DNA from: Candidatus Acidiferrum sp.
Lineage (GTDB): Bacteria; Acidobacteriota; Terriglobia; Terriglobales; Acidobacteriaceae
DNA: 64,000 nucleotides
Assembly (NCBI GenBank): GCA_035602195.1
Contig: DATNMU010000216.1
Coordinates: 4,853-68,852 of the forward strand
Direction of reading: 5' to 3'
In this document: positions 5,479 through 58,605 of the stretch, one piece after another
How positions within the stretch are numbered: position 1 is the stretch's first letter
Layout: every line of letters starts with the position of its first letter
The notes under the pieces: generated by a model
Databases searched by the model: none
What the model was told of the DNA's origin: nothing
What the model saw: only the letters and a program-made list of their open reading frames with translations
Translations under genes and position numbers: made by a program

Positions 5479-5696
5479 TACCGGGAATTATATGGCACGG
5501 GGACCGCTCGGAAAGAATTGCTGATCGCTGATTCTTGATTGCTGATTAGGAATTAGCAATCGTCCCCTAATGGTTTCCAATCAGAAATCAACAATCAAAA
5601 ATCAACAATTCGTTGCTGGATAAATCCTTTTACGAATGCCGCGAGGTTACCAACGGCACGTTCCCCGCCTGGCCGCCTGGCGCTAACATTTCTTCT

Positions 5697-11084: not shown

Positions 11085-11179
11085 GTGAAGACGGCATGGC
11101 GAGTCGAAATGGATTGTCATCCTGAAGCCCGCGTTCTTTGCGGGCTGAAGAATCTCTGTACTCGCAGACAGCACTCCCT

Positions 11180-11891: not shown

Positions 11892-12196
11892 ATTCCTAAT
11901 ATACCATAGTCGATACCAGCATTGAATATGGTGGACTCGGCGAAAGCACGGACCGGGATGGTCCAAAATTTTCGCCGTTACTCAGTCAACAAACGTGGAC
12001 ATGCAAAACCAGCCTCCGCGCACCATTTCCTCCACTGCTACAATTCCCTGTTTTGACGAAACTCGCCTCGCAAGAACTTTGGGCAGCACATCCACGTACT
12101 GTCTTGTGAGAAACGCGCATTCAAGTTTAAGAGTCTGGTTTCGCTGAAAGCTGACGGCTGATAGCTGACAGCCGCTTTTCCGGGGAGCTTCAACTT

Positions 12197-25421: not shown

Positions 25422-25461
25422 TCGCTCATCAAAGAAATGTTCTTTGGGGGAATAAGAGAAC

Positions 25462-25689
25462 TTGTCTTCCTGAGCGAGGAATTTGTTTTGCGGTAGCAAA
25501 GCAAATCCGCAGTCCAAAGCCTGCCCTGAGCGAAGCCGAAGGGGATCCCTTGCGCCCCAAAAGCACTCGAACCCAGCAGAGGAATTCGCTCCCCAGTTTC
25601 AGCGCCGTCGGCTCGGCGCTTTTGGGTGGCGCAGCGCTTTAGCGCTGCGATTAAGATTCCCAAAACCCACCGGCTTTAGCCGCTGAGGT
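25462..25689. repeat. Composite of a family A-variant element (25462-25552) and a family C element (25620-25689) in the aspS/cmk convergent spacer
   Basis: 25462-25552 is about 90% identical to the reverse complement of 46813-46903. 25620-25689 (ttttgggtggcgcagcgctttagcgctgcg...ggctttagccgctgaggt) recurs at 32747-32819, 37598-37670 and 46636-46708 (inverted). Confidence 0.9.
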
Positions 25690-25745
25690 ACCCCAGGGGC
25701 TGGAACCTGGCTTGGTAACAATTTTTTTCAGCGCTGCAAAGCGAC

Positions 25746-26441: not shown

Positions 26442-26580
26442 TGAACAAGTAGATGATTGTACACGCACTCCGTTCCCCGCAGCCCGTGTGCCCCGCAGAC
26501 AAAAATTTAACAAACAAGTGACCGCCGCCACGCATCTTCCTTCGTGATTCCAACGTCTCATAGCACATACGTTGAAAGCG

Positions 26581-26640
26581 ATTCATGGTTCATAGATTCA
26601 TGGTTCATAGATTCATGGTTCACAGATTTATCGTTCATAG
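26581..26640. repeat. Tandem repeat, 4 x 15 bp (attcatggttcatag)
   Basis: attcatggttcatag attcatggttcatag attcatggttcacag atttatcgttcatag. Confidence 0.95.
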
Positions 26641-26742
26641 ATGTTGCCGCTTTGTAACGCTGTTGGCGCAGAGCACAGTGGGCGAACCTGCCCCTGTAAT
26701 GCGGCAGTCCGGTTGCAAGCCCGGACAGTGAAGGAGGGTCGC

Positions 26743-28051: not shown

Positions 28052-28143
28052 AAACAGTCTGTGAACGTAGCTGTCAGCTCTGCACTTGCGCAGTCGCCTT
28101 ACGGAAGGCTAAGAGCTAAGAGCTAGCAGCTAACAGCTGACAG

Positions 28144-30189
28144 CTAGATCCTCTTAAACGCCCTCTGAATCTCCCTTACAGAATACCGCAGAACCACCGG
28201 CCTCCCGTGCGGACAAGCCATGGGATGATCCGTCTTCGCCAGTTCCGCCAGCAACCACTCCATTTTATTTTGCTCCAGCGGCATGTTCACTTTGATGGCT
28301 GCATGGCAGGCGATCGACGCGGCAATCCGTCCCCGAATTTTTTCCAGATTCAGCGACTGCTCCTCCCGCGAAATTTCATCCAGCAACTCATGTAGCATGC
28401 GCTCGACCGCCGCTGCATCCACTCCAGCGGGCGCAACTTTTACCGCCACGCTGCGCGCCCCAAACGGTTCCGCTTCAAATCCGTTATGTTCCAGCTCTCC
28501 GGCAATCTCGGAAAATATCGCCTGCTGCGCCGGAGACAGTTCCAGCACAATCGGCATCAGCAGACGCTGGCTTTCCACTTTCTTCACCGCGCGTTGCTTC
28601 AGAATCCTCTCGAACAAAACTCGCTCGTGCGCCACATGCTGGTCCACAATCCACAATCCATCTTCATTGACCGCGAGAATAAAGGAATTTCGAATCTGCC
28701 CCAGCGGACGCAGCGTCGCCAGTGCGTCCAGCGTCGGCTCTCCCCGAACATTTTCCGCGACATCAAGTTCCCCACCGCACCCGTTATCCGGAACCGTTTC
28801 GGCAAAGTGCGATTCCAACCCGCGCGCCACCGGAATCGCGGCATTCGCCTCGACCGCAATTCCCCCTTCAAACTGAAAGCGCGCCGAAACCGGCGGCGGC
28901 ACCGCCGCCTGCAACGCGAATCCGCTGCCCGCGTTTTCGTAACCTGAGTTTTCGCAACCCGGATTTCCATAGGAAGCTCGCGACGCGCCCGCATCTTCGT
29001 GTGAAGCCCGCTCCGTACCCGCGTCCCAATCCCGCGCTCCCGGCGTGAGCCCCGAACTCGCTGTAGCGCGCGCATGAATCTCCGTCGTGAACTGCGGCGC
29101 CGGACGTGCCTTCATCAGCGCCGCCCTCACCGTGTCCCGCACAAAATCGTGCATCACCGTCGATTGCCGGAAGCGCACCTCCGTCTTCGAGGGATGCACA
29201 TTCACATCCACCTCGCCCGCTGGCATTTCCAGAAACAGCAGCACCACCGGATAAACCGAAGGCGGAATAATATTGCGATAAGCCTCCGTCAGCCCGTGCT
29301 GAATCAGCCGGTCGCGAATCAAACGCCCGTTCACAAACACATAAATCGAATTGCGATTCAGCTTCTGAATCTCCGGCTTCGAAACAAACCCGTGCAGCCG
29401 CATTTCCCCCGGCGTAGGGCGGGCACCCACACCCTCGTCATCCTGATTTTCTTCTTCCTGCCTCCTCCACGGCGGAGGCTGCGGCAACCCCACGCGCTCC
29501 AGTGCCTGCACCGCCGCCACGGCAATCAGTTGATCCAAAGTCTCTTTGCCGAATACCTGATAAACCCGCTCGCTGTATCCCGCCACCGGCGGTGCCACCA
29601 GCATGGCATTGCTCGTCGTATGCAACTCAAAATGCTTTTCCGGATGCGCCAGCGCATAGTGCGTAACCAGCGAGGCAATGTGTGAAAGTTCGGTCGACTC
29701 CGCTTTCAAAAACTTTTTCCGCGCCGGAGTATTAAAAAAAAGGTCGCGCACCGTAATCGAAGTACCCTCCGGCAATCCCGCCTCTTCCACCCGCGCCATC
29801 TTCCCGCCATTGATCTCGATCACGGTCCCGGAAGCCGATCCCGCATCCCGTGTCTCCAATCGCAGTCGCGCGACCGACGCAATCGAAGGCAGCGCCTCCC
29901 CTCGAAATCCCAGAGTGGACACGCTCAACAGATCTTCCGCATCTTTAAGCTTCGACGTCGCGTGCCGCTCAAAAGCCAGCATGGCATCGTCGCGCACCAT
30001 GCCGCACCCGTTATCCGTAATCTGAATGAGCTTTTTTCCCCCCGCCTCCACCGTAATCTTGATGCGGCTCGCGCCCGCGTCCAGCGCGTTCTCCAGCAAC
30101 TCCTTCACCACCGAAGCAGGCCGCTCCACCACCTCGCCCGCCGCGATCTTATTGGCAACCTGCTCGGAAAGTACGTGAATGCGCCCCAT
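28144..30189 (-). CDS. mutL: DNA mismatch repair protein MutL
   Basis: 681 aa. IAAGEVVERPASVVKELLENALDAG, DNGCGM, GFRGEAL. Long low-complexity linker. C-terminal dimerisation/endonuclease domain (DQHVAHERVLFE...CPHGRP). Confidence 0.93.
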   Translation of the reverse strand: MGRIHVLSEQVANKIAAGEVVERPASVVKELLENALDAGASRIKITVEAGGKKLIQITDNGCGMVRDDAMLAFERHATSKLKDAEDLLSVSTLGFRGEALPSIASVARLRLETRDAGSASGTVIEINGGKMARVEEAGLPEGTSITVRDLFFNTPARKKFLKAESTELSHIASLVTHYALAHPEKHFELHTTSNAMLVAPPVAGYSERVYQVFGKETLDQLIAVAAVQALERVGLPQPPPWRRQEEENQDDEGVGARPTPGEMRLHGFVSKPEIQKLNRNSIYVFVNGRLIRDRLIQHGLTEAYRNIIPPSVYPVVLLFLEMPAGEVDVNVHPSKTEVRFRQSTVMHDFVRDTVRAALMKARPAPQFTTEIHARATASSGLTPGARDWDAGTERASHEDAGASRASYGNPGCENSGYENAGSGFALQAAVPPPVSARFQFEGGIAVEANAAIPVARGLESHFAETVPDNGCGGELDVAENVRGEPTLDALATLRPLGQIRNSFILAVNEDGLWIVDQHVAHERVLFERILKQRAVKKVESQRLLMPIVLELSPAQQAIFSEIAGELEHNGFEAEPFGARSVAVKVAPAGVDAAAVERMLHELLDEISREEQSLNLEKIRGRIAASIACHAAIKVNMPLEQNKMEWLLAELAKTDHPMACPHGRPVVLRYSVREIQRAFKRI

Positions 30190-30394: not shown

Positions 30395-30416
30395 TTGTGA
30401 TGCTACAATGTATCAC
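30395..30416 (+). promoter_or_regulatory. Candidate promoter/operator: extended -10 (TGcTACAAT, 30401-30409) embedded in the palindrome TGTGAT-N10-ATCACA
   Basis: tgtgatgctacaatgtatcaca lies immediately before ATG 30417 of the antitoxin gene. The geometry implies a leaderless or near-leaderless transcript. Confidence 0.3.
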
Positions 30417-30659
30417 ATGAAAAAAGCTTCAGTCCGCGACCTCCGCTACGCCTTCACGAAGATCGAGCGCCTTTTACGTCAGGGCGAAGAGGTCCAAATC
30501 ACCAAGCGCCGCCGCGTCATTGCCCGCCTGGTCCCCGAAACTGCGGAAGGCCCGAAAGAAATACCGGATTTCCTGGCGCGCCTGCACTCAATCTACGGCG
30601 ACAAGGTTCTGGCCGTGACTGCAGCCGACCTGCTGGCCTCCGATCGGAACCGATATTGA
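30417..30659 (+). CDS. Phd/YefM-like antitoxin of a VapBC-type pair
   Basis: MKKASVRDLRYAFTKIERLLRQGEEVQITKRRRVIARLVPE...; the stop overlaps the start of the PIN gene. The tracked ORF starts at 30408, inside the putative -10 box. Confidence 0.75.
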   Translation: MKKASVRDLRYAFTKIERLLRQGEEVQITKRRRVIARLVPETAEGPKEIPDFLARLHSIYGDKVLAVTAADLLASDRNRY

Positions 30660-31084
30660 AGGTTTACGCGGATCCCAGCTTCGTCGTGTCGCTCTATAGC
30701 CCGGATGCGAACTCCATCTCCGCCGCCCGCACCATGCAAGCATCCTCTGGCGATCGCCTTCTTACTACGTTCGGAGAACTCGAAATCATCAATGCGATGG
30801 GTCTACGGGTTTTTCGCAATGAGATTTCTCTGGCCCAGTCCCGGTCCTCATTAGGCGCCTTCGAGATAGACTTGTGCGACGGGGTTTTCCTCGTCCGGAA
30901 TCTCGCCGATTCGATTCTCGAACGAGCCCGCCAATTATCGTTGCAAACCACCGCCAAGTTAGGCACCCGCTCTGCCGATTTGTTGCACGTGGCAGCGGCA
31001 ATCGAGCTGGGCGCAGATTGCATCTTCACCTTCGATCAGCATCATCGAAAGCTCGCCCAAACTCTCCGCCTAAAGCTCAACTAA
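30656..31084 (+). CDS. vapC: PIN-domain toxin VapC
   Basis: 142 aa. VYADPSFVVSLY...GELEIINAM...RSADLLHVAAAIELGADCIFTFDQ shows the PIN acidic residue pattern. 4-nt overlap with the antitoxin gene. Confidence 0.8.
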   Translation: MKVYADPSFVVSLYSPDANSISAARTMQASSGDRLLTTFGELEIINAMGLRVFRNEISLAQSRSSLGAFEIDLCDGVFLVRNLADSILERARQLSLQTTAKLGTRSADLLHVAAAIELGADCIFTFDQHHRKLAQTLRLKLN

Positions 31085-32268: not shown

Positions 32269-33927
32269 GTGCCCACCTTCCACGTCGAAAACTTCGGCTG
32301 CCGCGCCACGCAGGCCGACGGCGCCGCCCTCGAGCGCCAGTTCGAATCCCGCGGCCTCTCCCGCGCTCCATCGAACAGCGCCGACCTGGTCATATTGAAT
32401 ACTTGTACGGTCACGGGTTCCGCGGATCAAGACGCCCGCGCTGCCATCCGGCGGGTGCAGCGGCAAAATCCGTTGGCCAAAATCATCGTCACCGGATGTT
32501 ATGCACAGCGTGCGCCCGAAGAAATTGCCGCGCTGCCCGGTGTCACCGCAGTCATCGGCAACTCGCACAAACACCAACTCGCGGAAATCGCTTTAGAGAA
32601 TCTCGCGGACTGCACTCGCCCCGATCCCCTGCCGCCTGTCAATTCTGGGTCGCACCATTCCGGGTCGGGCAATTCTGGATCGAGCGATTCCGCGTCGGGT
32701 GATTCCGGGTCGGGTGATTCCGCGTCGGCCGATTTTGGGTCGGCCGATTTTGGGTGGCGCAGCGCTTCCAGCGCTGCGATTCCTCTTGCCCATTTTCAGC
32801 CGGCTTTAGCCGCTGAGGTCAACGGATTCATTCCAGTCGCGAATCTTACCGCCCAAGCCCGAAGCCCACAGCCCCAAGCCCGCCTCTTCGTCTCCGACAT
32901 CTTCGCCCACACCGAACTGCTGGCCGCGCCCGTCTTCGAATCCGCCAACCATCTTCAAGACCGCACTCGTCCCAACCTCAAAGTGCAGGATGGATGCGAC
33001 AACCGCTGTTCCTTCTGCGTAATCCCCAGCGTCCGTGGCCACAGCCGGTCGTTACCGGTGCGCGAAATTATTCGCGAGGTGAACACATTGGTGGGCGCGG
33101 GCTATCGCGAGGTTGTCATCAGCGGTATCAACCTCGGCCGCTGGGGGCGCGATTTAGCTCTCAGCCATACGCTTTCACCCATCCGCAACAGCCGCGCCAT
33201 GGACGGCCAACGACCAGCGACTAACGACCAACGACTCGAGTCCCTCATTCGCACCATTCTCGCCGAAACTCGACTGGAAAAGCTTCGCATCTCTTCCGTC
33301 GAACCGATGGATTGGACCGACGATCTCATCGCCCTCGTCGCCTCCTCGCCGCGCATCGCCAAGCACGCGCACGTCCCGCTGCAATCCGGCAGTGACGCCG
33401 TGCTTCGCCGCATGCACCGCAAATATCGTCCCTGGCACTATCGCGAGAAGATCGAAAAAATTCACGCCGCCATGCCCATCGCCGCCATCGGCGCCGACGT
33501 CATGACCGGATTCCCCTGTGAGACCGACGCCGAATTCGAAGCCACCCGCCGCCTCATCGAAGACCTGCCCTTCACTTATCTGCACGTCTTCACCTTCTCC
33601 GCCCGCCCCGGTACGCCGGCAGCGGCCATGCCCAATCAGGTTCCCGTCCACATCGCCCGCGAGCGCAACAAAATCCTGCGCGATCTCGCCACCGAAAAAA
33701 AACAAGCCTTTATGCGATCCTTTGTAGGGAAACAATTGGAGGCCATTACGCTCGCTCAGCATTCGCCCGACGGAGAATTTACCGAAGCCCTCACCGACAA
33801 CTATCAGAAATTCTTCCTAAAAGGCCGCCATGCCCCGAACCGTTGGATCAACGCACATGTAGAGCATTTGTCGGATGGTGTGCTGGTGGGAAGCACGTCC
33901 TCGTCCTCCCACGGCTTGTCATCCTAA
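32269..33927 (+). CDS. mtaB: MiaB-like tRNA methylthiotransferase (MtaB type) carrying an internal repeat-derived insertion
   Basis: FHVENFGCRATQADG...LNTCTVTGSADQDAR (MTTase N-domain). Radical-SAM CDNRCSFC, then a TRAM-like C-terminus. 552 aa. Confidence 0.85.
   Translation: MPTFHVENFGCRATQADGAALERQFESRGLSRAPSNSADLVILNTCTVTGSADQDARAAIRRVQRQNPLAKIIVTGCYAQRAPEEIAALPGVTAVIGNSHKHQLAEIALENLADCTRPDPLPPVNSGSHHSGSGNSGSSDSASGDSGSGDSASADFGSADFGWRSASSAAIPLAHFQPALAAEVNGFIPVANLTAQARSPQPQARLFVSDIFAHTELLAAPVFESANHLQDRTRPNLKVQDGCDNRCSFCVIPSVRGHSRSLPVREIIREVNTLVGAGYREVVISGINLGRWGRDLALSHTLSPIRNSRAMDGQRPATNDQRLESLIRTILAETRLEKLRISSVEPMDWTDDLIALVASSPRIAKHAHVPLQSGSDAVLRRMHRKYRPWHYREKIEKIHAAMPIAAIGADVMTGFPCETDAEFEATRRLIEDLPFTYLHVFTFSARPGTPAAAMPNQVPVHIARERNKILRDLATEKKQAFMRSFVGKQLEAITLAQHSPDGEFTEALTDNYQKFFLKGRHAPNRWINAHVEHLSDGVLVGSTSSSSHGLSS
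32640..32759 (+). repeat. Eight tandem 15-bp units inside the mtaB CDS, in frame (pentapeptide units NSGSH/HSGSG/DSASG/DFGSA)
   Basis: caattctgggtcgca ccattccgggtcggg caattctggatcgag cgattccgcgtcggg tgattccgggtcggg tgattccgcgtcggc cgattttgggtcggc cgattttgggtggcg. It is directly followed by a family C element (32747-32819). Confidence 0.9.
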
Positions 33928-34166: not shown

Positions 34167-34565
34167 TCACTCCAACGGCAGCAGATACAAATCCAACTCG
34201 CTCATAGGAAAGTCTTTTCGGTTATCGGTGGCGAGCGAGCAGCGTTGCTTCAGCGCCACCGCCGCAACCATCGTGTCGGCCAACGTCAGCGTTCGGCCCT
34301 TTCGAGCCCACTCGTTCTTGAGCCTGCCCGCCATCTCGCCAACATCGGCGGTAATTTCGTGGCAATCAAGAACGTTTAGAAAATCTCTCGTCGCCGTTCC
34401 TTCTTCAGGCCGCATGCCGGCATAGACTTCAGCCAGGTTGAGTGCCGACGTTGCCAGCATATGCCCCGAACGCACAAGCCCAGCCAGCCACTGCCGCCGC
34501 CCGCGACGCAACCGCAAAGCATCGATCAGTACCGAGGTGTCGAGTAGAATCTGCATCGATTTCAC
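34167..34565 (-). CDS. vapC: PIN-domain toxin VapC
   Basis: MQILLDTSVLIDAL...LNLAEVYAGM...TLADTMVAAVALKQRCSLATDNRKDF. Confidence 0.85.
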   Translation of the reverse strand: MKSMQILLDTSVLIDALRLRRGRRQWLAGLVRSGHMLATSALNLAEVYAGMRPEEGTATRDFLNVLDCHEITADVGEMAGRLKNEWARKGRTLTLADTMVAAVALKQRCSLATDNRKDFPMSELDLYLLPLE

Positions 34566-34573
34566 TTGCGCCT

Positions 34574-34852
34574 TTAGTTCCGCTTTCGCGCATTTCCATC
34601 TTTGCTCCCGCGTTCGCTCTGCTTACGCAGATCCCGCACCCACTTCGCTGCTCCACCTTTAAGTTCAGGATGGTCTTCCGACTTCCACGCCGGCTCGCCG
34701 TTCTCCAGGAAGCGAAGTAGTTTCCGGCGTTGCACTTCCTGCCGGGCAGTCTCCAGCAAGAATGCACTTCGCCCGCGGGGCCCTACCAGTGCATCGATTT
34801 CCCGCAGGAGATCACTAGGAATCAGAATGTGTGCCCTCTGTGTGTCTTCCAT
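34574..34852 (-). CDS. Antitoxin (ribbon-helix-helix/CopG-like) of the VapBC pair
   Basis: From the ATG at 34852: MEDTQRAHILIPSDLLREIDALVGPRGRSAFLLETARQEVQRRKLLRFLE... It lies 8 nt upstream of vapC. Confidence 0.7.
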   Translation of the reverse strand: MEDTQRAHILIPSDLLREIDALVGPRGRSAFLLETARQEVQRRKLLRFLENGEPAWKSEDHPELKGGAAKWVRDLRKQSERGSKDGNARKRN

Positions 34853-35109
34853 ATGTGTACTAATAGTGTGCCATAAATGAATTCCCGAATCAAGCGGTGC
34901 TGGGTCTGTTGATGTCCAACCGGCGAAACCACGGACTGCGCAAACACGAAGCACCATCAGGCGGAAGGCTATTCAGCGATGCGCCGCCAGCTCACTTCGA
35001 CGCAAACCCCTGTACCCTAAGGTGCATCCGACTTGAGGACGTTTTTCGCGGAAGTCCGCACCACTCCTGTGATCTGGGTTCGCGGCCGCCGGTGGACTAT
35101 AAAAATCTT

Positions 35110-35673: not shown

Positions 35674-36236
35674 CCCTTTCATGCAGTCATCCTGAGACCC
35701 ACACCCTTTGCGGCCCAAATGACCGGGCTAAACGACCTATTCATTTCGTCCTACCCACGCTCACATCTGCGCAGGTTCATCCGGGTCCGGCTCGCGCACC
35801 GGCGCATCCGGATTCTCCGGAGCATCAGGGGGTTCCTTAATCGGGGGCGGCGAAGGCTCCGGCGGTTTCCGCACGCGAAGAAAATCAGGCGGGAAGGTTT
35901 CAACTTCCAGAGAAACGGTCATCCCCCTCAGATGCCCAAACTGCAGAAATGGAAGCCGCGCCCCCAATCGCACCGCCTGCGCGCATCACCGGCAAACACC
36001 CGCGCCCCAACTCGCATCTCATTCCTGAACACGGTCGCGCCCGACGCGTCCAGCAGTTCGGACTCGCGAAGACGAACAGCGTCAGCGAATCGGCGGAGGA
36101 TATGAGGCGGTGAGGTTCAGATTTTTGCTGTTTCTCTGAACGGAGCCAACGAGCTATCTACGCCGATTCAGAGTCCCTCGCAAGCGCGCCCCTTCAGCAA
36201 CCTGCCCTGAGCCAAGCCGCACCCAGCCTTGCCACG

Positions 36237-36520
36237 GATTGTCATCCCGAGCGCAGCAAGATCACTCGCGAAGCGAATGATCCTGCGAAGTCGAGGGACC
36301 TGCTGTCTGCCTACATCGCCACCGATGAGCGGCCCTCGCTTTTCCGCTCACACAGGCACGCCCCATGTGGAGACAGCCGCCTCGGCTGTCCAAGCCTGGG
36401 CGCAGCCCGGCGCCCCCTACCACACTGCCGCCCCCCCGCTGACAAATCCGAATAAACACGCATGTTTGAAATACCGTGGAAGAGCGGCGCTTCCAGCGCC
36501 GCGTAAAGGCGCTTCTGCCT
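36237..36520 (+). repeat. Composite repeat, about 285 bp, copy 1 (family A + B + C modules)
   Basis: About 85-90% identical by eye to 37299-37600 in the same orientation, apart from a roughly 30-bp indel. A third partial copy lies at 37705-37790. Confidence 0.9.
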
Positions 36521-37068: not shown

Positions 37069-37298
37069 CCTCGCCTTCCCAAAAGAAAAGCGCGGCCCCT
37101 GTGGAATACAAAAGGCCGCGCTCCAGATTTTTTTCTAGTTTTTACTCTATATTTCCATTATATCAATCAGCAAACCCCTAAAGCGCCACCTTAGCCAGCA
37201 ATATTTCTCCTTTCCCTGCCACCACATACCCTCAATCGCGTAATTTCTGCCTATTGACAACATTCCCCGCAAATTGAAAAAAGAGTTCGCTAACCACC

Positions 37299-37600
37299 GA
37301 TTGTCATCCCGAGCGCAGCAAGATCATTCGCGAAGCGAAGGATCTTGCGAAGTCGAGGGACCTGCTGTCTGCCTACGTCGCCACCAATGAGCGGCCCTAG
37401 CTTTTTCGCTCATACAAGCTCGGACCATGTGGAGACAGCCGCCTCGGCTGTCCAAGCCTGAGCCTGCCCTGAGCGATAGCCGAAGGGGCGAAGCCCGGCG
37501 CCCCCGACCACACTGCCCGCCCCCCGCTGACAAATCCAAATAAATACGGATGCCTGAAATACTTGGAAGAGCGGCGCTTCCAGCGCCGCGTAAGCCGCCT
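37299..37600 (+). repeat. Composite repeat, about 300 bp, copy 2
   Basis: Direct repeat of 36237-36520 on the other side of the endonuclease gene. Confidence 0.9.
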
Positions 37601-38001
37601 TTGGGTGGCGCAGCGCTTCAGCGCTGCGATAAAACATGGACTAGAGGAACCGGGCTTCAGCCCGGTCGCCTAAGACCTGTCCTCCTCCAACACCCTTGCA
37701 ACGAATTGTCATCCCGAGCGAAGCAAGATCATTCGCGAAGCGAAGGATCCGGCAAAGTCGAAGGACCTGCTGTTTGCCTACGTCGCCACTAATGACCGAC
37801 AGCACGCTGTCTTCCTGAGCGCAGCCGAAGGGATCTCCGCCGCACCCTCTCGCCGGCTGGCAGCAGCAGAAAGTGACGAAATAACTCCGCCCGCTGTGCT
37901 GAAAACGCGTCAGTCCCTATTGCATGAGGACAATCTAGTTTGTCCGCCGGACTAAGTTTGTGAAGTGTGAACGTCCCCCCTCACGGCAAAACCGGGCTTG
38001 A

Positions 38002-41834: not shown

Positions 41835-41986
41835 AGCTTCGCCCGATTTATCTGCATTGAAGACGCCGCAACTCACGTCGACGATTCCAGAGCAATTTAG
41901 AAGTTGAAATAGAAATAAGAAATAAGAGATAGGAAATGAATGTTCAGCGCTGAAAGCTGCCAGCTGACAGCCGACCTTGAGGAACT

Positions 41987-42746: not shown

Positions 42747-42851
42747 AAGAAGCTTTCAGCTTTTAGCATTTAGCTTTTCAGATTGGGGCGGCGGGCGTCT
42801 TTGGGGCGCGGCTGCCCTGCTCTATTTGTCTATCTTCTTTTTTTCTCGATC

Positions 42852-44060: not shown

Positions 44061-44090
44061 GGAGCTCTTAGCCATTAGCTCTTAGCCATT

Positions 44091-44128
44091 AGCTCTTGGC
44101 TCTTAGCTAAGGCTAAGAGCCAAGAGCT
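44091..44128. repeat. Perfect 17-bp stem / 4-nt loop hairpin (family D, AGCT-rich), ending 13 nt before the pheT ATG
   Basis: agctcttggctcttagc-taag-gctaagagccaagagct. It is part of the AGCT-rich block 44061-44135. Other family D sites are 28106-28147, 42749-42781, 58060-58094, 58505-58539, 63530-63560 and 63648-63676. Confidence 0.9.
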
Positions 44129-44140
44129 AAAAGCTGATTC

Positions 44141-46618
44141 ATGAAAATTTCTCCACAGTGGGTGCGGGAGTTTGTTGATCTATCCGTCGACGACCAGCGG
44201 CTGGCGGAGGATTTGACGGCGGCGGGAATTGCGGTCGAAGGAATTTCCGGCTCCGGCGCGGACACTGTGTTCGAGATGGAGATTGGGACGAACCGTCCGG
44301 ACGCGATGAATCATTATGGAATCGCGCGGGAGGCGGCGGCGATTTATGACTTGCGGCTGAAAGAGCTGTCAGCTGTCAGCTCTCAGCTTTCAGCGAACCC
44401 ATCGAAGGCGAGTGTTAAGGCGTCTGACATGGCGCTGAAGCGGCGCTCTTCCACGGGGCGGGGTGGCGCTAAGAAGAAAGCCTCAGCGGCTAAAGCCGCT
44501 TCTTCTGCTGCTTCTCACGGCGCGGCTGGAAGCCGCGCCCTTTCAAGGCAAACATCAGGGGCTGAAGCCCTTTCCTCTTCTGCCTCTTACGGGACGACTC
44601 GAGTCGTGCCCTTCCCCATCACTGTCGAGGAGCCGGAGTTGTGTCCGCGGTTTTCGGCGCGGGTGATTCGCGGGACCAGGATTAAGGCTTCGCCTGAGAA
44701 GATTGCACATCGGTTGCGGTTGCTGGACCAGCGGCCTATTTCGAATGCGGTTGACGCGACCAATTATGTTTTGTGGGAAATGGGCAAGCCGACGCATGTA
44801 TTCGACATGGGTTTGCTGGAGGGTGGGCGGCTCATTATCCGGCGCGCGAAGGATGGGGAGAAGCTGAAGACGCTGGATGGAGTGGAGCGCACGCTGTCTT
44901 CGGAAGATCTGGTCGTGGCTGATGCGAAAAAACCTGTTGGGCTTGCGGGTGTAATGGGCGGGTTCGACACCATGATTACCGACAGGACAAAAAATATTTT
45001 GATTGAGTCCGCGTGGTGGGATCCGGTGACGGTGCGCAAAACTTCGCGGCGGCACGGGATTCATACCGACGCTTCGCATCGGTTTGAGCGGGGAGCGGAC
45101 TTTGAGTCGACGGTTTTGTCGTGCGATCTGGTGGCGAAGCTGATTTTGGAATCGGGCGGCGGAGAGTTGGTGGGCGGCGCGATTGATGTGGTGTCACGGC
45201 AGATGGATCAGGCACCGATTGTTTTGCGGCTTTCGGAGGTACATCGGATACTCGGTGGGAATCTGAGTGCGGGAGAAATCTTCCGCATTCTGAAAAAGCT
45301 TGGGTTTGGTGTGATTCCAGAAGGGCAGGCGGACGCGAAATTTCGCGTGCAGATTCCTAGCTGGCGGCTGGACGTGGAGCGCGAGATCGATTTGCTTGAA
45401 GAGATCGCGCGGGTGCACGGGTACGACAAGTTTGAAAATACTTTGCCGGCGTATAGCGGCGCGGTTGTGGATTTGCCGAATGCGGCGATGGATGTGGCTT
45501 TTCGCGAGCGGGCGTTGGCTCTGGGTTACAACGAGGCGGTGTCGCTGACGTTTATTTCGCATGCGGCGGCGGAGACGTTTGGATTCCTGACGGAGGCCTC
45601 AGCGGCTATTGCCGTAGATCATTTGTCGGCGAGTACGGCTCGGCTGGGAGCCGCGCCCTTTCAAAGCGCGAGCGGGCGAGTGTTAGATGCGGCGACCCTT
45701 CCAATCCGGAACGAACCTGGGCTGGACGCCGCATCCCTTGCGAGCGGCACTGGGCGGGTACTCGAGTTGGAGAATCCGTTGAGCGAAGAAGCGAGTGTGA
45801 TGCGGACTTCGCTGGCGCCGGGGATGCTCGACATGCTGGCGTGGAACTTGAACCGCGATGCGGAAGAAGTGCGGCTGTTTGAGATGGGGCGCGTGTATGA
45901 GATGCGCAGCGGAGAGCGGGTTGAGCCGCAGCGTGCGTGCCTGGGAGCAACGATGGCGTCGGTCGTAGGATCGCTGCCGGCGGCTGGCAGGCTGGACATC
46001 AGCGGGCCGTTGAATTCCCCATTCAAGCCAAAAGAAGGCTTGAATGGGGCACCCCTTCAAGTGGAAGCTTTTCGCGGGTTCAAAGGCGACGTGGAGAATT
46101 TGCTGGCGGCATTTTCATATCGCGAGTTGAGCTTCGATCGGAAGACCGCGGGGCATTTTCATCGGTGGCGCTCGGCGCGCGCTTTGATGGATGGGGCGGT
46201 GGTGGCGCAGTTTGGGCAGATTGCGGAAGAGGTGAAGGCGGAGCGGAAGTTACGGCAGGATATTTTTCTGGCGGAGTTCGATTTGGACGAACTGCACGCG
46301 CGCGGGCTGCGGGCAGTTCGATTTGCGGCCTTGGGAAAATATCCGGCGGTGGAGCGGGATTTTTCGTTTGTATTTTCGGATGAGGTGGAGTTTGAGGCGA
46401 TGCGGCGGGCGGTGATGGCGCTGGGGATTCGCGAGTTGCGTGAATTCAGGCCGGTGGAGATTTTTCGGGGTGGGTCGATTGGCGCGAGCAAGTATTCAAT
46501 TTTGCTGCGGGCGAAGTTGCAATCGGATGAGGGGACGTTGCGGGATGAGCAGATTGCGCAGTGGGCGGAGAAGATGGTTGGGGCGCTGAAGGGTATTGGT
46601 GGGGTGCAGCGGGCTTAG
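44141..46618 (+). CDS. pheT: Phenylalanine--tRNA ligase beta subunit (no B2 tRNA-binding domain; three repeat-derived insertions)
   Basis: 825 aa. MKISPQWVREFV, IGTNRPDAMNHYGIAREAAAIY, LCPRFSARVIRG, NAVDATNYVLWEMGKPTHVFD, GLAGVMGG, and the FDX-ACB-like C-terminus (KYPAVERDFSFVF). Confidence 0.92.
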   Translation: MKISPQWVREFVDLSVDDQRLAEDLTAAGIAVEGISGSGADTVFEMEIGTNRPDAMNHYGIAREAAAIYDLRLKELSAVSSQLSANPSKASVKASDMALKRRSSTGRGGAKKKASAAKAASSAASHGAAGSRALSRQTSGAEALSSSASYGTTRVVPFPITVEEPELCPRFSARVIRGTRIKASPEKIAHRLRLLDQRPISNAVDATNYVLWEMGKPTHVFDMGLLEGGRLIIRRAKDGEKLKTLDGVERTLSSEDLVVADAKKPVGLAGVMGGFDTMITDRTKNILIESAWWDPVTVRKTSRRHGIHTDASHRFERGADFESTVLSCDLVAKLILESGGGELVGGAIDVVSRQMDQAPIVLRLSEVHRILGGNLSAGEIFRILKKLGFGVIPEGQADAKFRVQIPSWRLDVEREIDLLEEIARVHGYDKFENTLPAYSGAVVDLPNAAMDVAFRERALALGYNEAVSLTFISHAAAETFGFLTEASAAIAVDHLSASTARLGAAPFQSASGRVLDAATLPIRNEPGLDAASLASGTGRVLELENPLSEEASVMRTSLAPGMLDMLAWNLNRDAEEVRLFEMGRVYEMRSGERVEPQRACLGATMASVVGSLPAAGRLDISGPLNSPFKPKEGLNGAPLQVEAFRGFKGDVENLLAAFSYRELSFDRKTAGHFHRWRSARALMDGAVVAQFGQIAEEVKAERKLRQDIFLAEFDLDELHARGLRAVRFAALGKYPAVERDFSFVFSDEVEFEAMRRAVMALGIRELREFRPVEIFRGGSIGASKYSILLRAKLQSDEGTLRDEQIAQWAEKMVGALKGIGGVQRA

Positions 46619-46937
46619 GGCGTGGGGGGCGCGTACCTCGGGGGCTAAAGCCACGACTCCAAGGTGAATCCTTAATCGCAGCGCTGGAAGCGCTGCGCCA
46701 CCCAAAATCTACATTGGGGCGCGGAAGTGTAACGGGCGCGGTGCAGTCGGATGGCGCCGTCGAATGAGCAGAAGCAGAAATTCCTTTCGAGGCTGGCGGT
46801 CTCGTACACAGGTAAGGGATCCCCTTCGGCTTCGCTCAGGGCAGGCTTTCGACTGCGGAATTGCTTTGCTAGCGCAAAGCAAATTCCTCGCTCAGGATGA
46901 CAAATCCTAATTGAATTGTTGTGCTAATCTGCCAGCT

Positions 46938-53378: not shown

Positions 53379-53648
53379 CGCGCAGTCCTCCCAAAGGCGG
53401 ATGGTACGCCGCGTGCAATCCCTGCGTCAAACGCACATCCCGCTTATATTCATTTTGTTTTCTGATACTTATAGGCAACGAGGTCGGAACAATAGCGGCG
53501 AACACGCGGCGAATAAAGGACTGGATTTGGCGGCGTCTCCCGCCTCAGCGGCTGAGGCCGGATTCTTTTTGTGCTCGGCTTTCGGCACGATTGAAATCGT
53601 GCCCTTCCCGGTTGCGAAAAATATGGACCCGAGCGGGGCGAGGCGGAT

Positions 53649-56817: not shown

Positions 56818-58071
56818 GTGACCGCTTCCCTTGACAGGCGTTTCGTGGAGTCACTAGAGTCCGCGCAGTCCGTATCTGATTCGCGCTGTGAAGATTGGAG
56901 AATCGACGTGGCATACGCCCTGGTTGCACCTGCCCCTTCCACTCATATTCTTGAGTGGCTCGCTATTTCGCTGACGCAAGGACTGGGACCGACCAAGGCG
57001 CGGAAGCTGGTGGAACACTTTGGCGGCGTGCAGGCAGTATTTCAGGCGTCGCTGACTGAGCTGGAGAGCACGGGGATTCAGGCGGTTTCGGCGCAGGCGA
57101 TTGCGACGGGAAAATCGGCGGCGATGGCGCGTGAGGAAATTGCACGGGCGGCGGGGTCGGGAGCGACGGTACTGTCGGGGGAAGATGCGTGCTATCCGGT
57201 GAGGCTGAAGGAGATTTATGATCCGCCGCTGGTGCTGTATGTGCGGGGGAATGCTGAGGTGCTGAAGATGCCGGGGATAGCGATGGTGGGGACGCGGCAT
57301 CCGACGGCGTATGGGTCGGGGATGGCGGAGCGACTGGGGTGCGATCTGGCGGGGCAGGGGCTGGTCATTATTAGTGGGATGGCGCGGGGAGTGGATACGG
57401 CGAGCCATCGCGGGGCGATTGCGGCGAAGGGCAAGACGGTGGCGGTGTTGGGGACGGGAGTGGACGTGATGTATCCGAAAGAGAATTCGCGATTGGCGGA
57501 GCAGATTCTGGCGCTGGGCGGAGCGATCGTTTCGGAATTTGCGATGGGAACGTTTGCGGCGCCGCAGAATTTTCCGATTCGGAATCGGATTTTGAGTGGA
57601 ATGTCGGTGGGAGTGCTGGTGGTGGAGGCCGCGGAATATTCGGGAACGCGGATTACGGCGCGGTGTGCGCTGGAGCAAAATCGCGATGTTTTTGCGGTGC
57701 CGGGGAACGTGACGAATAAAAATTCGTGGGGGCCTAACACGCTGATTAAGCAGGGCGCGAAGCTGGTTGCGACCTGGGAAGATGTGTGGGAAGATTTGCC
57801 GCCGGAGGTAAAAATGGCGCTGACGCCGCCAGCGGCGCCTGAATCCGGCGAGGCGAGTTCGGCATCTCTATTCCCGGACGATGGGCTGCCTCCGCATGAA
57901 AAGCGGATTCTGAGATTGCTGAAGGCAGACGAGGCTACGCATATCGATGAGTTGGTAGAACTTCTGGAGAATGAGTTGTCTTCGTCGGAGATATTCGCGG
58001 CGCTGTTTGAGCTGGAACTGGCGGGGAAAGTGAGGCAGATGGCGGGGAAGAATTTTGTAAAAAGCTTTTAG
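56818..58071 (+). CDS. dprA: DNA-processing protein DprA (start uncertain)
   Basis: GIAMVGTRHPTAYG, LVIISGMARGVDTASHRGA, TVAVLGTGVDVMYPKEN, FPIRNRILSG, GTRITARCALEQNRDVFAVPG, and a C-terminal winged helix. Confidence 0.9.
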   Translation: MTASLDRRFVESLESAQSVSDSRCEDWRIDVAYALVAPAPSTHILEWLAISLTQGLGPTKARKLVEHFGGVQAVFQASLTELESTGIQAVSAQAIATGKSAAMAREEIARAAGSGATVLSGEDACYPVRLKEIYDPPLVLYVRGNAEVLKMPGIAMVGTRHPTAYGSGMAERLGCDLAGQGLVIISGMARGVDTASHRGAIAAKGKTVAVLGTGVDVMYPKENSRLAEQILALGGAIVSEFAMGTFAAPQNFPIRNRILSGMSVGVLVVEAAEYSGTRITARCALEQNRDVFAVPGNVTNKNSWGPNTLIKQGAKLVATWEDVWEDLPPEVKMALTPPAAPESGEASSASLFPDDGLPPHEKRILRLLKADEATHIDELVELLENELSSSEIFAALFELELAGKVRQMAGKNFVKSF

Positions 58072-58133
58072 CTGTTAGCTCTTAGCTTTTAGCTCAACCC
58101 TTCAATCCTTTACGGAATACGCCGGAGGACGCT

Positions 58134-58496: not shown

Positions 58497-58605
58497 GCAT
58501 TTCAAGCTAAAAGCTAACGGCTAAAAGCTAAAAGCTTTTCACGGTAACTTGTTGCGGCTGTCCCATTCGTGCTAGTTTCGAGACAAATCTTAGAGAGATG
58601 AGGGA

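Follow-up and report, generated by a model that had tools for sequence, protein, structure and literature searches.

The window analyzed here is a 64,000-nucleotide stretch of Candidatus Acidiferrum sp. contig DATNMU010000216.1, and our subject within it is the gene mtaB, in which a 15-nt tandem array and a 77-nt element with two hairpins lie in frame between the codons for the N-terminal methylthiotransferase (MTTase) domain and those for the radical-SAM domain. Further copies of the element occur elsewhere in the window, both in intergenic DNA and inside pheT (Table 1). We compared the locus with 162 mtaB-centered loci (950 kb) and with the closest database proteins, all of them from uncultured Terriglobia; these relatives, labeled Candidatus Sulfotelmatobacter, Ca. 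Acidoferrum or Acidobacteriaceae metagenome-assembled genomes, come from soil and peat.

Table 1 Features of the mtaB locus and copies of the 77-nt element in the window. CM, covariance model; TRF, Tandem Repeats Finder; ORF, open reading frame; MFE, minimum free energy.
Feature	Position	Strand	Basis and remarks
mtaB coding sequence (host gene), 552 aa, GTG start	32269..33927	+	TIGR01579, PF00919, PF04055, Foldseek, dN/dS
N-terminal MTTase (UPF0004) domain, aa 4-97	32278..32559	+	PF00919, E = 2e-22
30-nt leader (CTRPDPLPPV) between conserved ENLAD and the array	32611..32640	+	12-13 mismatches to the 15-nt unit
Seven tandem 15-nt units, NSGSH HSGSG NSGSS DSASG DSGSG DSASA DFGSA	32641..32745	+	codon register
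77-nt two-hairpin element in mtaB, DFGWRSASSAAIPLAHFQPALAAEVN	32746..32822	+	in frame; CM 88 bits, E = 1e-20
Hairpin 1, CGCAGCGCT-TCC-AGCGCTGCG, 9-bp stem	32758..32778	+	RNAalifold and MFE folds
Hairpin 2, TCAGC(C)GGCT-TT-AGCCGCTGA	32796..32816	+	folds; six-frame translation
Heptamer array, GCCCGAA-like, ~4.7 copies, peptide ARSPQPQAR, second variable linker stretch	32851..32882	+	TRF; in frame
Radical-SAM CxxxCxxC codons, C243/C247/C250 (CDNRCSFC)	32995..33018	+	translation; invariant columns
Second hypervariable MtaB loop, aa 296-325 (30 aa), in radical-SAM domain	33154..33243	+	ACGACCA heptamer array 33203-33235 (TRF)
15-nt tandem repeat GGCCTGTCATCCTGA, 3.1 copies, across the mtaB stop codon	33913..33959	+	TRF
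Intergenic copy between aspS and a convergent gene	25618..25692	+	CM 89.6 bits; ORF map, Pfam
Intergenic copy	37597..37673	+	CM 85.3 bits; ORF map
Intergenic copy between pheT and an aminotransferase gene	46632..46709	-	CM; ORF map, Pfam
Divergent member with another hairpin-1 stem, GCACGAT..ATCGTGC, peptide EGHDFNRA	53539..53615	-	CM 29.7 bits
Member inside pheT, reverse orientation, in frame, peptide ASAAKAASSAASHGAAGSRALSRQ	44477..44549	-	CM 26.8 bits
Weaker second member inside pheT, in frame, EASAAIAVDHLSASTARLGAAPFQ, splits catalytic-like (CLM) domain	45593..45669	-	CM 18.7 bits

An initial annotation of this DNA had called the host gene an MtaB-like methylthiotransferase, and this assignment held. 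Against the TIGR01579 MtaB equivalog the 552-aa protein scored 393.9 bits, above the cut-off of 357.05, and its scores against the MiaB and RimO equivalogs lay under their cut-offs. The PF04055 (radical SAM) match covered aa 238–430, and the six cluster cysteines (C11, C46 and C77; C243, C247 and C250) were invariant in 56 MtaB orthologues. In the PDB, Foldseek ranked the B. subtilis MtaB model 9a6d_A first and MiaB 7mjz second, with alignment over the whole chain. At the C-terminus we obtained no separate Pfam match to TRAM; the TIGR00089 alignment reached profile position 428 of 429, and the AlphaFold2 (AF2) model had confident beta strands at aa 489–543. Selection was gauged against two relatives, labeled L081 (95% nucleotide identity, synonymous divergence dS 0.13) and L082 (86%, dS 0.50). 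The ratio of nonsynonymous to synonymous substitution rates (dN/dS) was 0.21 against L081 and 0.14 against L082, indicating purifying selection on mtaB in all three lineages. We thus take the predicted product of the open reading frame (ORF) at 32269–33927 to be a bona fide MtaB. The gene was identical in an independent JGI contig (L083), and the protein was near-identical in three more assemblies; recovery of the same gene in independent JGI, ENA and NCBI assemblies shows that the insert is not an assembly artifact.

When the protein was aligned with the MiaB structure 7mjz, residues 5–101 matched chain residues 21–121 and residue 238 matched chain residue 166, so that ~92 extra residues separate the N-domain from the radical-SAM motif, in good agreement with the ~90 that had been noted ahead of CDNRCSFC near aa 243. 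Measured from GNSHK to FVSDIF, the linker spans 116 aa in the window protein and 42–50 aa in the shortest Terriglobia orthologues. Array and element are in frame throughout and contain no stop codon, as had been described. We modeled the protein with AF2 from a 56-sequence alignment (mean predicted local distance difference test score, pLDDT, of 66) and obtained confident predictions for the N-domain (up to aa 113), the C-terminal beta domain and the greater part of the radical-SAM barrel, with pLDDT falling below 50 at aa 118–260 and 287–320, the two repeat-filled loops. Judging from this model, the insert probably lies in a permissive and disordered inter-domain loop, between confident domains, which is where the initial annotation had suspected it.

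We defined the element with nhmmer, blastn and a covariance model (CM) built from four window copies. It consists of a conserved 5′ part, GATTTTGGGTGG, a 9-bp hairpin, a variable spacer of ~22 nt and a second short hairpin contained in CGGCTTTAGCCGCTGAGG, the closing pair of which is C-G in some copies and G-C in others. The fold energy over the whole flagged region was ordinary (z = −1.2), and only the individual hairpins are meaningful. The 64-kb window holds four close and three divergent copies, and three of the seven are inside genes. The first 36 nt of the mtaB copy are 100% identical to 46674–46709 on the opposite strand, and a 23-nt core of the element occurs twice in the window, with 0 occurrences expected. 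The likeness to intergenic DNA from which the initial annotation had set out, a 73-bp element about 80% identical to 25620–25689, was reproduced on its own coordinates (59/73, 81%). The variant at 53539 has counterparts in frame in other MtaB orthologues (REGHDFSRA...PALAAE).

Searches for a known identity or for hallmarks of mobility returned little. Rfam contains no family for the element, either in a scan of the whole window at gathering thresholds or in a relaxed scan of 32560–32900, which gave chance-level matches (≤14 bits). There were no terminal inverted repeats (TIRs) in the element, the best end-to-end local match in four copies scoring an inconsistent 5–8, and no consistent target-site duplication (TSD) around the copies, where a single 8-nt GC-rich match offset from the ends is likely due to chance. 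The alignment of the element likewise showed no GTAG/CGTC tag beside the stem, the flank being GGGTGG.

Six-frame translation revealed that hairpin 2 closes two of the three forward frames, one by TAG and the other by TGA, so that the frame reading ALAAE is the sole open forward frame, alongside two open reverse frames. Any tolerated forward copy must therefore read ...GWRSASSAA...ALAAE..., and the constant frame of the copies, being the effect of a filter, is not by itself a sign of peptide function. When a profile of the 26-aa element peptide was run against 1.84 billion representative proteins, 20 matches were returned at E ≤ 1e-3, nearly all of them short ORFs over intergenic copies, plus one MtaB fragment; the matches are uninformative on other host genes. 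Public protein sets hold many short entries (for example among P0121–P0140) that are translated intergenic copies of the element and probably annotation artifacts; P0125, a 179-aa metagenome ORF, contains three tandem full-length copies with a 36-aa period.

The array upstream of the element had been described as eight 15-bp units at 32640–32759 and as a part separate from the element. TRF confirmed that the array is real (32642–32749, 7.2 copies, score 104, 78% matches); in codon register, however, it comprises seven units at 32641–32745, and the supposed eighth unit, DFGWR, belongs to the element, of which it forms the first 15 nt, GATTTTGGGTGGCGC (32746–32760). Each of the seven units differs from this 15-mer by only 3–6 mismatches, the unit adjoining the element being the closest with 3, as compared with an average of 11.2 mismatches for random 15-mers from the window, 0.6% of which have six or fewer. 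This low divergence indicates that the units are tandem copies of the element's own end. Array and element are thus not independent of each other, contrary to the two-part description; the array appears to have grown from the element's 5′ end.

Comparison with relatives provided an estimate of the age of this arrangement. L081 has the same architecture, with an array of five units, exactly 30 nt shorter, and an additional 6-nt indel in the downstream heptamer stretch; this two-unit difference bears out the earlier proposal that a period of 15 bp lets the array expand and contract in frame. Variation in copy number within a population, which had also been envisaged, was not seen: the number of units, eight when the first 15 nt of the element are counted, does not differ among four near-identical assemblies drawn from different data sets. 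The array thus appears to change in copy number on an evolutionary rather than a population time scale. The 30-nt leader was found only in the window lineage and L081. L082 is without leader, array and element; its junction reads ...GCGG and then ACGGATTC..., with an ambiguity of 1–2 nt at most, and its own in-frame tandem duplications (FVSDIFASDIFVSDIF, ESTNRESAS) lie a few codons downstream.

Across orthologues, the GNSHK–FVSDIF linker ranges from 42 to 116 aa. The motif D[LF]GWRSASSAA...A[LS]AAE occupies the same linker position in dozens of MtaB orthologues, and the GWRSASSAA module has a constant length of 26 aa in 33 distinct peptides. Out of 274 MtaB sequences, 59 had a linker peptide of the GWRSASSAA type, 19 had one of the GHDFSRA type, in which the hairpin-1 stem is that of the window copy at 53539, and 191 had no scored motif. 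The CM gave 26 matches in the 162 mtaB loci, of which 21 lay in mtaB, one was an antisense echo of one of these, and four were intergenic and outside mtaB. Most in-gene copies are forward and at the same site as the window copy. Exceptions are L094, with a reverse-oriented copy in the same linker stretch (peptide IAALQALRHPK), L114, in which a reverse copy follows the conserved FVxL motif, and L106, with a reverse copy in the second loop, inside the radical-SAM domain. The element at the linker site is common to orthologues of ~80–88% core identity, in which the spacer has diverged almost to saturation. We read the linker copy as old, the comparison pointing to at least one ancient insertion with vertical inheritance and to a deletion in L082. 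Copies in reverse or in other loops of other orthologues indicate several independent insertions elsewhere in mtaB and hence repeated colonization of its loops. The feature is older, more widespread and more driven by repeats than had been assumed.

We then asked at which level the element is conserved, comparing 4-fold degenerate sites of the element with those in 138 columns of the gene core in eleven orthologues that carry the forward copy. Identity at 4-fold sites was 0.84 in the hairpin-1 stems (five codons), 0.52 in the gene core, against a random expectation of 0.36, and only 0.36 in the loop codon TCN (resampling P ~5e-5). GCT alanine codons are fixed even though only 13% of 4-fold sites have T, and stem serines are AGC without exception. 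Averaged over pairs, hairpin 1 was 87% identical and the spacer 41%. As expected under vertical descent, spacer identity tracked gene relatedness (Mantel r = 0.52, P = 0.003), a correlation driven by close pairs; the Spearman correlation of spacer and gene distance was weak (0.15) and not significant. Pairing is also preserved among subfamilies. In 31 copies from all subfamilies, 95% of stem cells were paired and 7 of 13 pairs showed compensatory double changes; for hairpin 1 alone, the values were 96.8% and 6 of 9 pairs. The covariation score was 0.341, against 0.128 in shuffles and far less for slid partners, in an alignment that had been fitted to the model. Because the stems are kept at synonymous sites while loop codon and spacer drift, the constraint acts on nucleic acid and not on the peptide. 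Short-tract gene conversion from other copies could keep the stems intact, as could selection for the hairpin in DNA or RNA. The initial annotation had named a segment shared by orthologues with conserved protein sequence as grounds for abandoning the idea of an insert; the element is indeed shared by dozens of orthologues, but its conservation is one of nucleotides, with loop codon and spacer free to vary.

With a probability of roughly 80%, we interpret the segment as a copy of a dispersed ~77-nt Terriglobia repeat with two hairpins, resembling repetitive extragenic palindromic (REP) sequences and bacterial interspersed mosaic elements (BIMEs), that sits in frame in the loop between the MtaB N-domain and the radical-SAM domain, the array being formed by duplications of its own end. 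In this scenario the element would have reached mtaB by whatever copying process disperses it between genes and would have survived there thanks to a structurally permissive loop. Slipped-strand mispairing would then have produced the array, perhaps helped by the self-complementarity of neighboring units (GGCCGA/TCGGCC). The synonymous conservation of the stem would reflect the same nucleic-acid-level constraint that keeps intergenic hairpins constant across genera, and this constraint could arise because a conserved factor recognizes the hairpin or through short-tract gene conversion, rather than from selection on the peptide.

Several observations weigh against this interpretation. Conservation at synonymous sites is unlike the behavior of a passively decaying selfish insert, and an additional force is needed to account for it. 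Given neither TIRs nor a consistent TSD, no mobility mechanism is in view (no transposase search was made). At 82–88% identity, the neighbor-joining tree of MtaB cores has poor resolution, which renders counts of gains and losses uncertain, as it does the status of the GHDFSRA-type copies as replacements or separate insertions. The AF2 alignment is shallow (56 close homologues) and the Fe–S motif at aa 236–260 is also poorly modeled, so that low pLDDT by itself argues only weakly for disorder. Finally, continued activity of the enzyme despite the insert is a prediction from its sequence.

An alternative of the same origin is co-option of the hairpin, whereby the mtaB copy would be kept by purifying selection as a DNA or RNA signal, such as a binding site for a factor that recognizes the family, a hairpin for mRNA stability or attenuation, or a translational pause between Fe–S domains. 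We regard this as possible, though on balance unlikely. The contrast between conserved stem sites (0.84 vs. 0.52) and drifting loop codon and spacer, the compensatory changes among subfamilies, and the persistence of the copy at one site where synonymous sites of orthologues are near saturation are all what co-option would predict. However, short-tract gene conversion would yield the same pattern; many orthologues, the close relative L082 included, manage without the element; and its presence in both orientations and in different loops fits poorly with one fixed cis-function for mtaB. A consensus scan flagged hairpin 1 as weakly terminator-like, but counts of such hits were not above those in shuffles and the intergenic copies have no T-tail, and we rejected the hairpin as an intrinsic terminator.

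Selection on the peptide itself, with the likeness to intergenic DNA being secondary, might be invoked for a clade-specific linker motif of fixed 26-aa length that dozens of orthologues have at a single position. We consider it very improbable, and the synonymous conservation of the stem largely refutes it: what is fixed are synonymous stem sites, the rare GCT and the AGC serines. Identical DNA occurs outside coding sequence and, within pheT, on the opposite strand, the reverse copy of L094 places the unrelated IAALQALRHPK at the same loop, the motif is missing from many orthologues, and the region is predicted to be disordered. It is equally hard to credit that the 15-nt array is a contingency locus, a hypermutable tract that varies linker length and so tunes or switches the enzyme. 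The five-codon unit, the two-unit difference from L081 and the self-complementary neighboring units would suit such a locus. Nevertheless, the unit number is constant across the four assemblies, the units are imperfect (78% matches), which slows slippage, the sole observed change accompanies a dS of 0.13, and it is not obvious how lengthening or shortening a disordered linker in frame would act as a switch. Lastly, three repeat-filled stretches in one gene, together with the tendency of repeats to mislead assemblers, might suggest a decaying pseudogene or an assembly chimera, readings that we reject in view of the intact frame, the six cluster cysteines and other residues invariant in the family, a score above the trusted cut-off of the MtaB hidden Markov model despite the inserts, a dN/dS of 0.14–0.21 and the same architecture in independent assemblies.

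Repeats have entered mtaB at further points, and the gene is not alone in carrying them. At the second variable linker stretch, orthologues have other heptamer-derived peptides (TENRELRTEN, QRPTTNDQRP, EARSPKPEA). The second loop, which lies inside the radical-SAM domain and is ~20 residues longer than in MiaB 7mjz, varies from 9 to 59 aa among 233 orthologues and is filled with heptamer-derived peptides; even L082, at 93% core identity, has a different one. The 15-nt repeat across the stop codon encodes the C-terminal tail of MtaB (...SSSSHGLSS*), a tail that is missing in L082. It is followed by a hairpin module, 'GTCATCCTGAGG...' (to 33984), which recurs at 11116 and 35686.

In-frame repeat inserts are not confined to mtaB, since pheT has them as well. 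This gene (ORF 44141..46618, + strand; Pfam B3_4, B5, tRNA_synthFbeta and FDX-ACB) contains an in-frame heptamer array at 44364–44394 (ELSAVSSQLSAN) adjoining the reverse element at 44477–44549, the two together accounting for aa ~77–158. The second element copy corresponds to aa ~483–515, and an in-frame repeat hairpin, FKPKEGLNGAP, is found at 46019–46055 (aa ~625–640). Relative to structure 4p71, PheT has ~69 extra residues at the first site and ~54 at the second, plus a third gap.

Heptamer arrays are abundant in the window as a whole. The 64 kb contain 15 or more of them, lying for the most part between genes and frequently arranged as inverted pairs, with units such as GCTGACA, AGCTCTT, AGCTAAG and AGCTTTT (for example at 5517–5609, 12143–12172, 28108–28147, 41906–41975, 42751–42778, 44063–44135, 58063–58094 and 58504–58536). 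Related heptamers are in frame in mtaB and pheT, and orthologues display peptides with a period of seven residues (TENRELR, SSQLSAL, QRPTTND, EARSPKP). Other repeat families accompany them. A 95-nt module occurs at 25457–25551 and 46814–46908, the two copies being 93% identical, mutually inverted and 65–100 nt from a copy of the 77-nt element; module and element are thus associated at two intergenic loci with unrelated spacers between them, forming a BIME-like mosaic. A ~170-nt repeat is present three times (36232–36401, 37294–37463 and 37699–37868; the later two are 92% and 61% identical to the first), next to a distinct 77-nt repeat present twice (36398–36474 and 37486–37562; 88% identity), and both belong to a duplicated non-coding block that also holds hairpin modules of the element family. 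A Type-P5 twister ribozyme (Rfam RF02684, full-length match of 49.7 bits vs. a gathering threshold of 37.6) lies at 26667–26724 on the + strand, directly downstream of a 15-nt tandem array, GATTCATGGTTCATA (26580–26642, 4.2 copies). Small PIN-domain (VapC-like) genes flank mtaB at 30408–31084 (+) and 34167–34957 (−), with antitoxin-sized ORFs upstream, and the upstream pair of PIN gene and antitoxin-sized ORF is conserved in L081 and L083.

These results have practical as well as conceptual implications. Natural variation in the linker (42–116 aa) and in the second loop (9–59 aa) amounts to a map of permissive sites in MtaB that can be of use for methylthiotransferase engineering and for the interpretation of structures. 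The repeats also serve as a warning, as they inflate protein lengths and give rise to numerous spurious short ORFs when metagenomes are annotated. A hairpin conserved at synonymous sites amid a drifting loop and spacer is an unusual signal, and complete genomes would make it possible to test selection on structure against gene conversion. The case extends the phenomenon of selfish DNA within protein-coding genes, familiar from Rickettsia, to an uncultured soil acidobacterium. A bolder, and doubtful, extension is that Terriglobia keep this hairpin family as functional nucleic-acid signals even in coding sequence, the mtaB stem being selected past synonymous saturation, and that the disordered loops of MtaB and PheT are recurrent landing pads in which hairpins, heptamer arrays and 15-mers are inserted, duplicated and swapped time and again. 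If this were true, the insert, far from being junk, would belong to a system acting across the genome, be it a cis-signal for a hairpin-binding factor or repeat-driven diversification of loops.

Comparison with known systems places each component in context. The host protein resembles MtaB, MiaB and RimO in its predicted three-domain architecture, its six cluster cysteines and, for MtaB, its TIGR01579 score. Short tandemly repeated heptanucleotide (STRR) sequences are a feature of heterocystous cyanobacteria. The heptamer arrays of the window are similar to these, and arrays of the same kind lie in frame in mtaB and pheT, where they encode peptides with a 7-aa period; they differ from STRR in phylum and in unit sequence. 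To our knowledge, in-frame STRR arrays inside housekeeping genes are not a described feature. An excess of heptamers in bacteria has been noted (PMC4692102). Our literature search on Acidobacteria heptanucleotide repeats, on in-frame REP or miniature inverted-repeat transposable element (MITE) insertions and on MtaB linker insertions found no prior description.

With the REP sequences and BIMEs of Enterobacteria and Pseudomonas (PMC2817692, PMC3733652), the element shares a GC-rich imperfect palindrome of ~21–23 nt, a high number of copies, intergenic mosaics and compensatory changes in stems. REPs are extragenic by definition, whereas 3 of 7 window copies and 21 of 25 mtaB-locus copies of the present element are in coding sequence; for this reason, and because it has no GTAG/CGTC tag, the element is not a classical REP. 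In-frame insertions of MITEs and of Rickettsia palindromic elements (RPEs) have been reviewed (PMC10969869). Like the intragenic in-frame MITEs ERIC, BOX and Correia/NEMIS (Delihas 2007, as cited in PMC10969869), the element is short and non-autonomous, has a structured RNA or DNA form and makes translational fusions with host ORFs. At 77 nt it falls in the MITE size class (50–500 bp) and is non-coding and multi-copy, with further copies in other genomes. Having neither TIRs nor a TSD, it is not a MITE by definition.

By analogy, the closest functional parallel appears to be offered by RPEs, together with intragenic MITEs of the ERIC and BOX type. RPEs (Ogata et al. 2000 Science, as summarized in PMC10969869) are likewise small dispersed palindromic repeats that occur both between genes and in frame in unrelated housekeeping genes, here mtaB and pheT. 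In both cases the protein gains a repeat-encoded peptide where its fold can accommodate one, and the host gene continues to function, as mtaB is predicted to do. A sizeable share of copies is intragenic, nearly half for RPEs according to the review (PMC10969869) and 3 of 7 in our window. The comparison rests on behavior and not on sequence: we do not claim the element as a member of the RPEs, and no kinship in sequence is expected. RPEs measure ~100–150 bp and are restricted to Rickettsia, whereas the Terriglobia element has 77 nt and two short hairpins. Relative to RPEs, the Terriglobia element stands out in that the same mtaB loops have been colonized repeatedly and in both orientations, that an in-frame tandem array was spawned from its end, that it shares these loops with in-frame heptamer arrays, and that its stems are conserved at synonymous sites.

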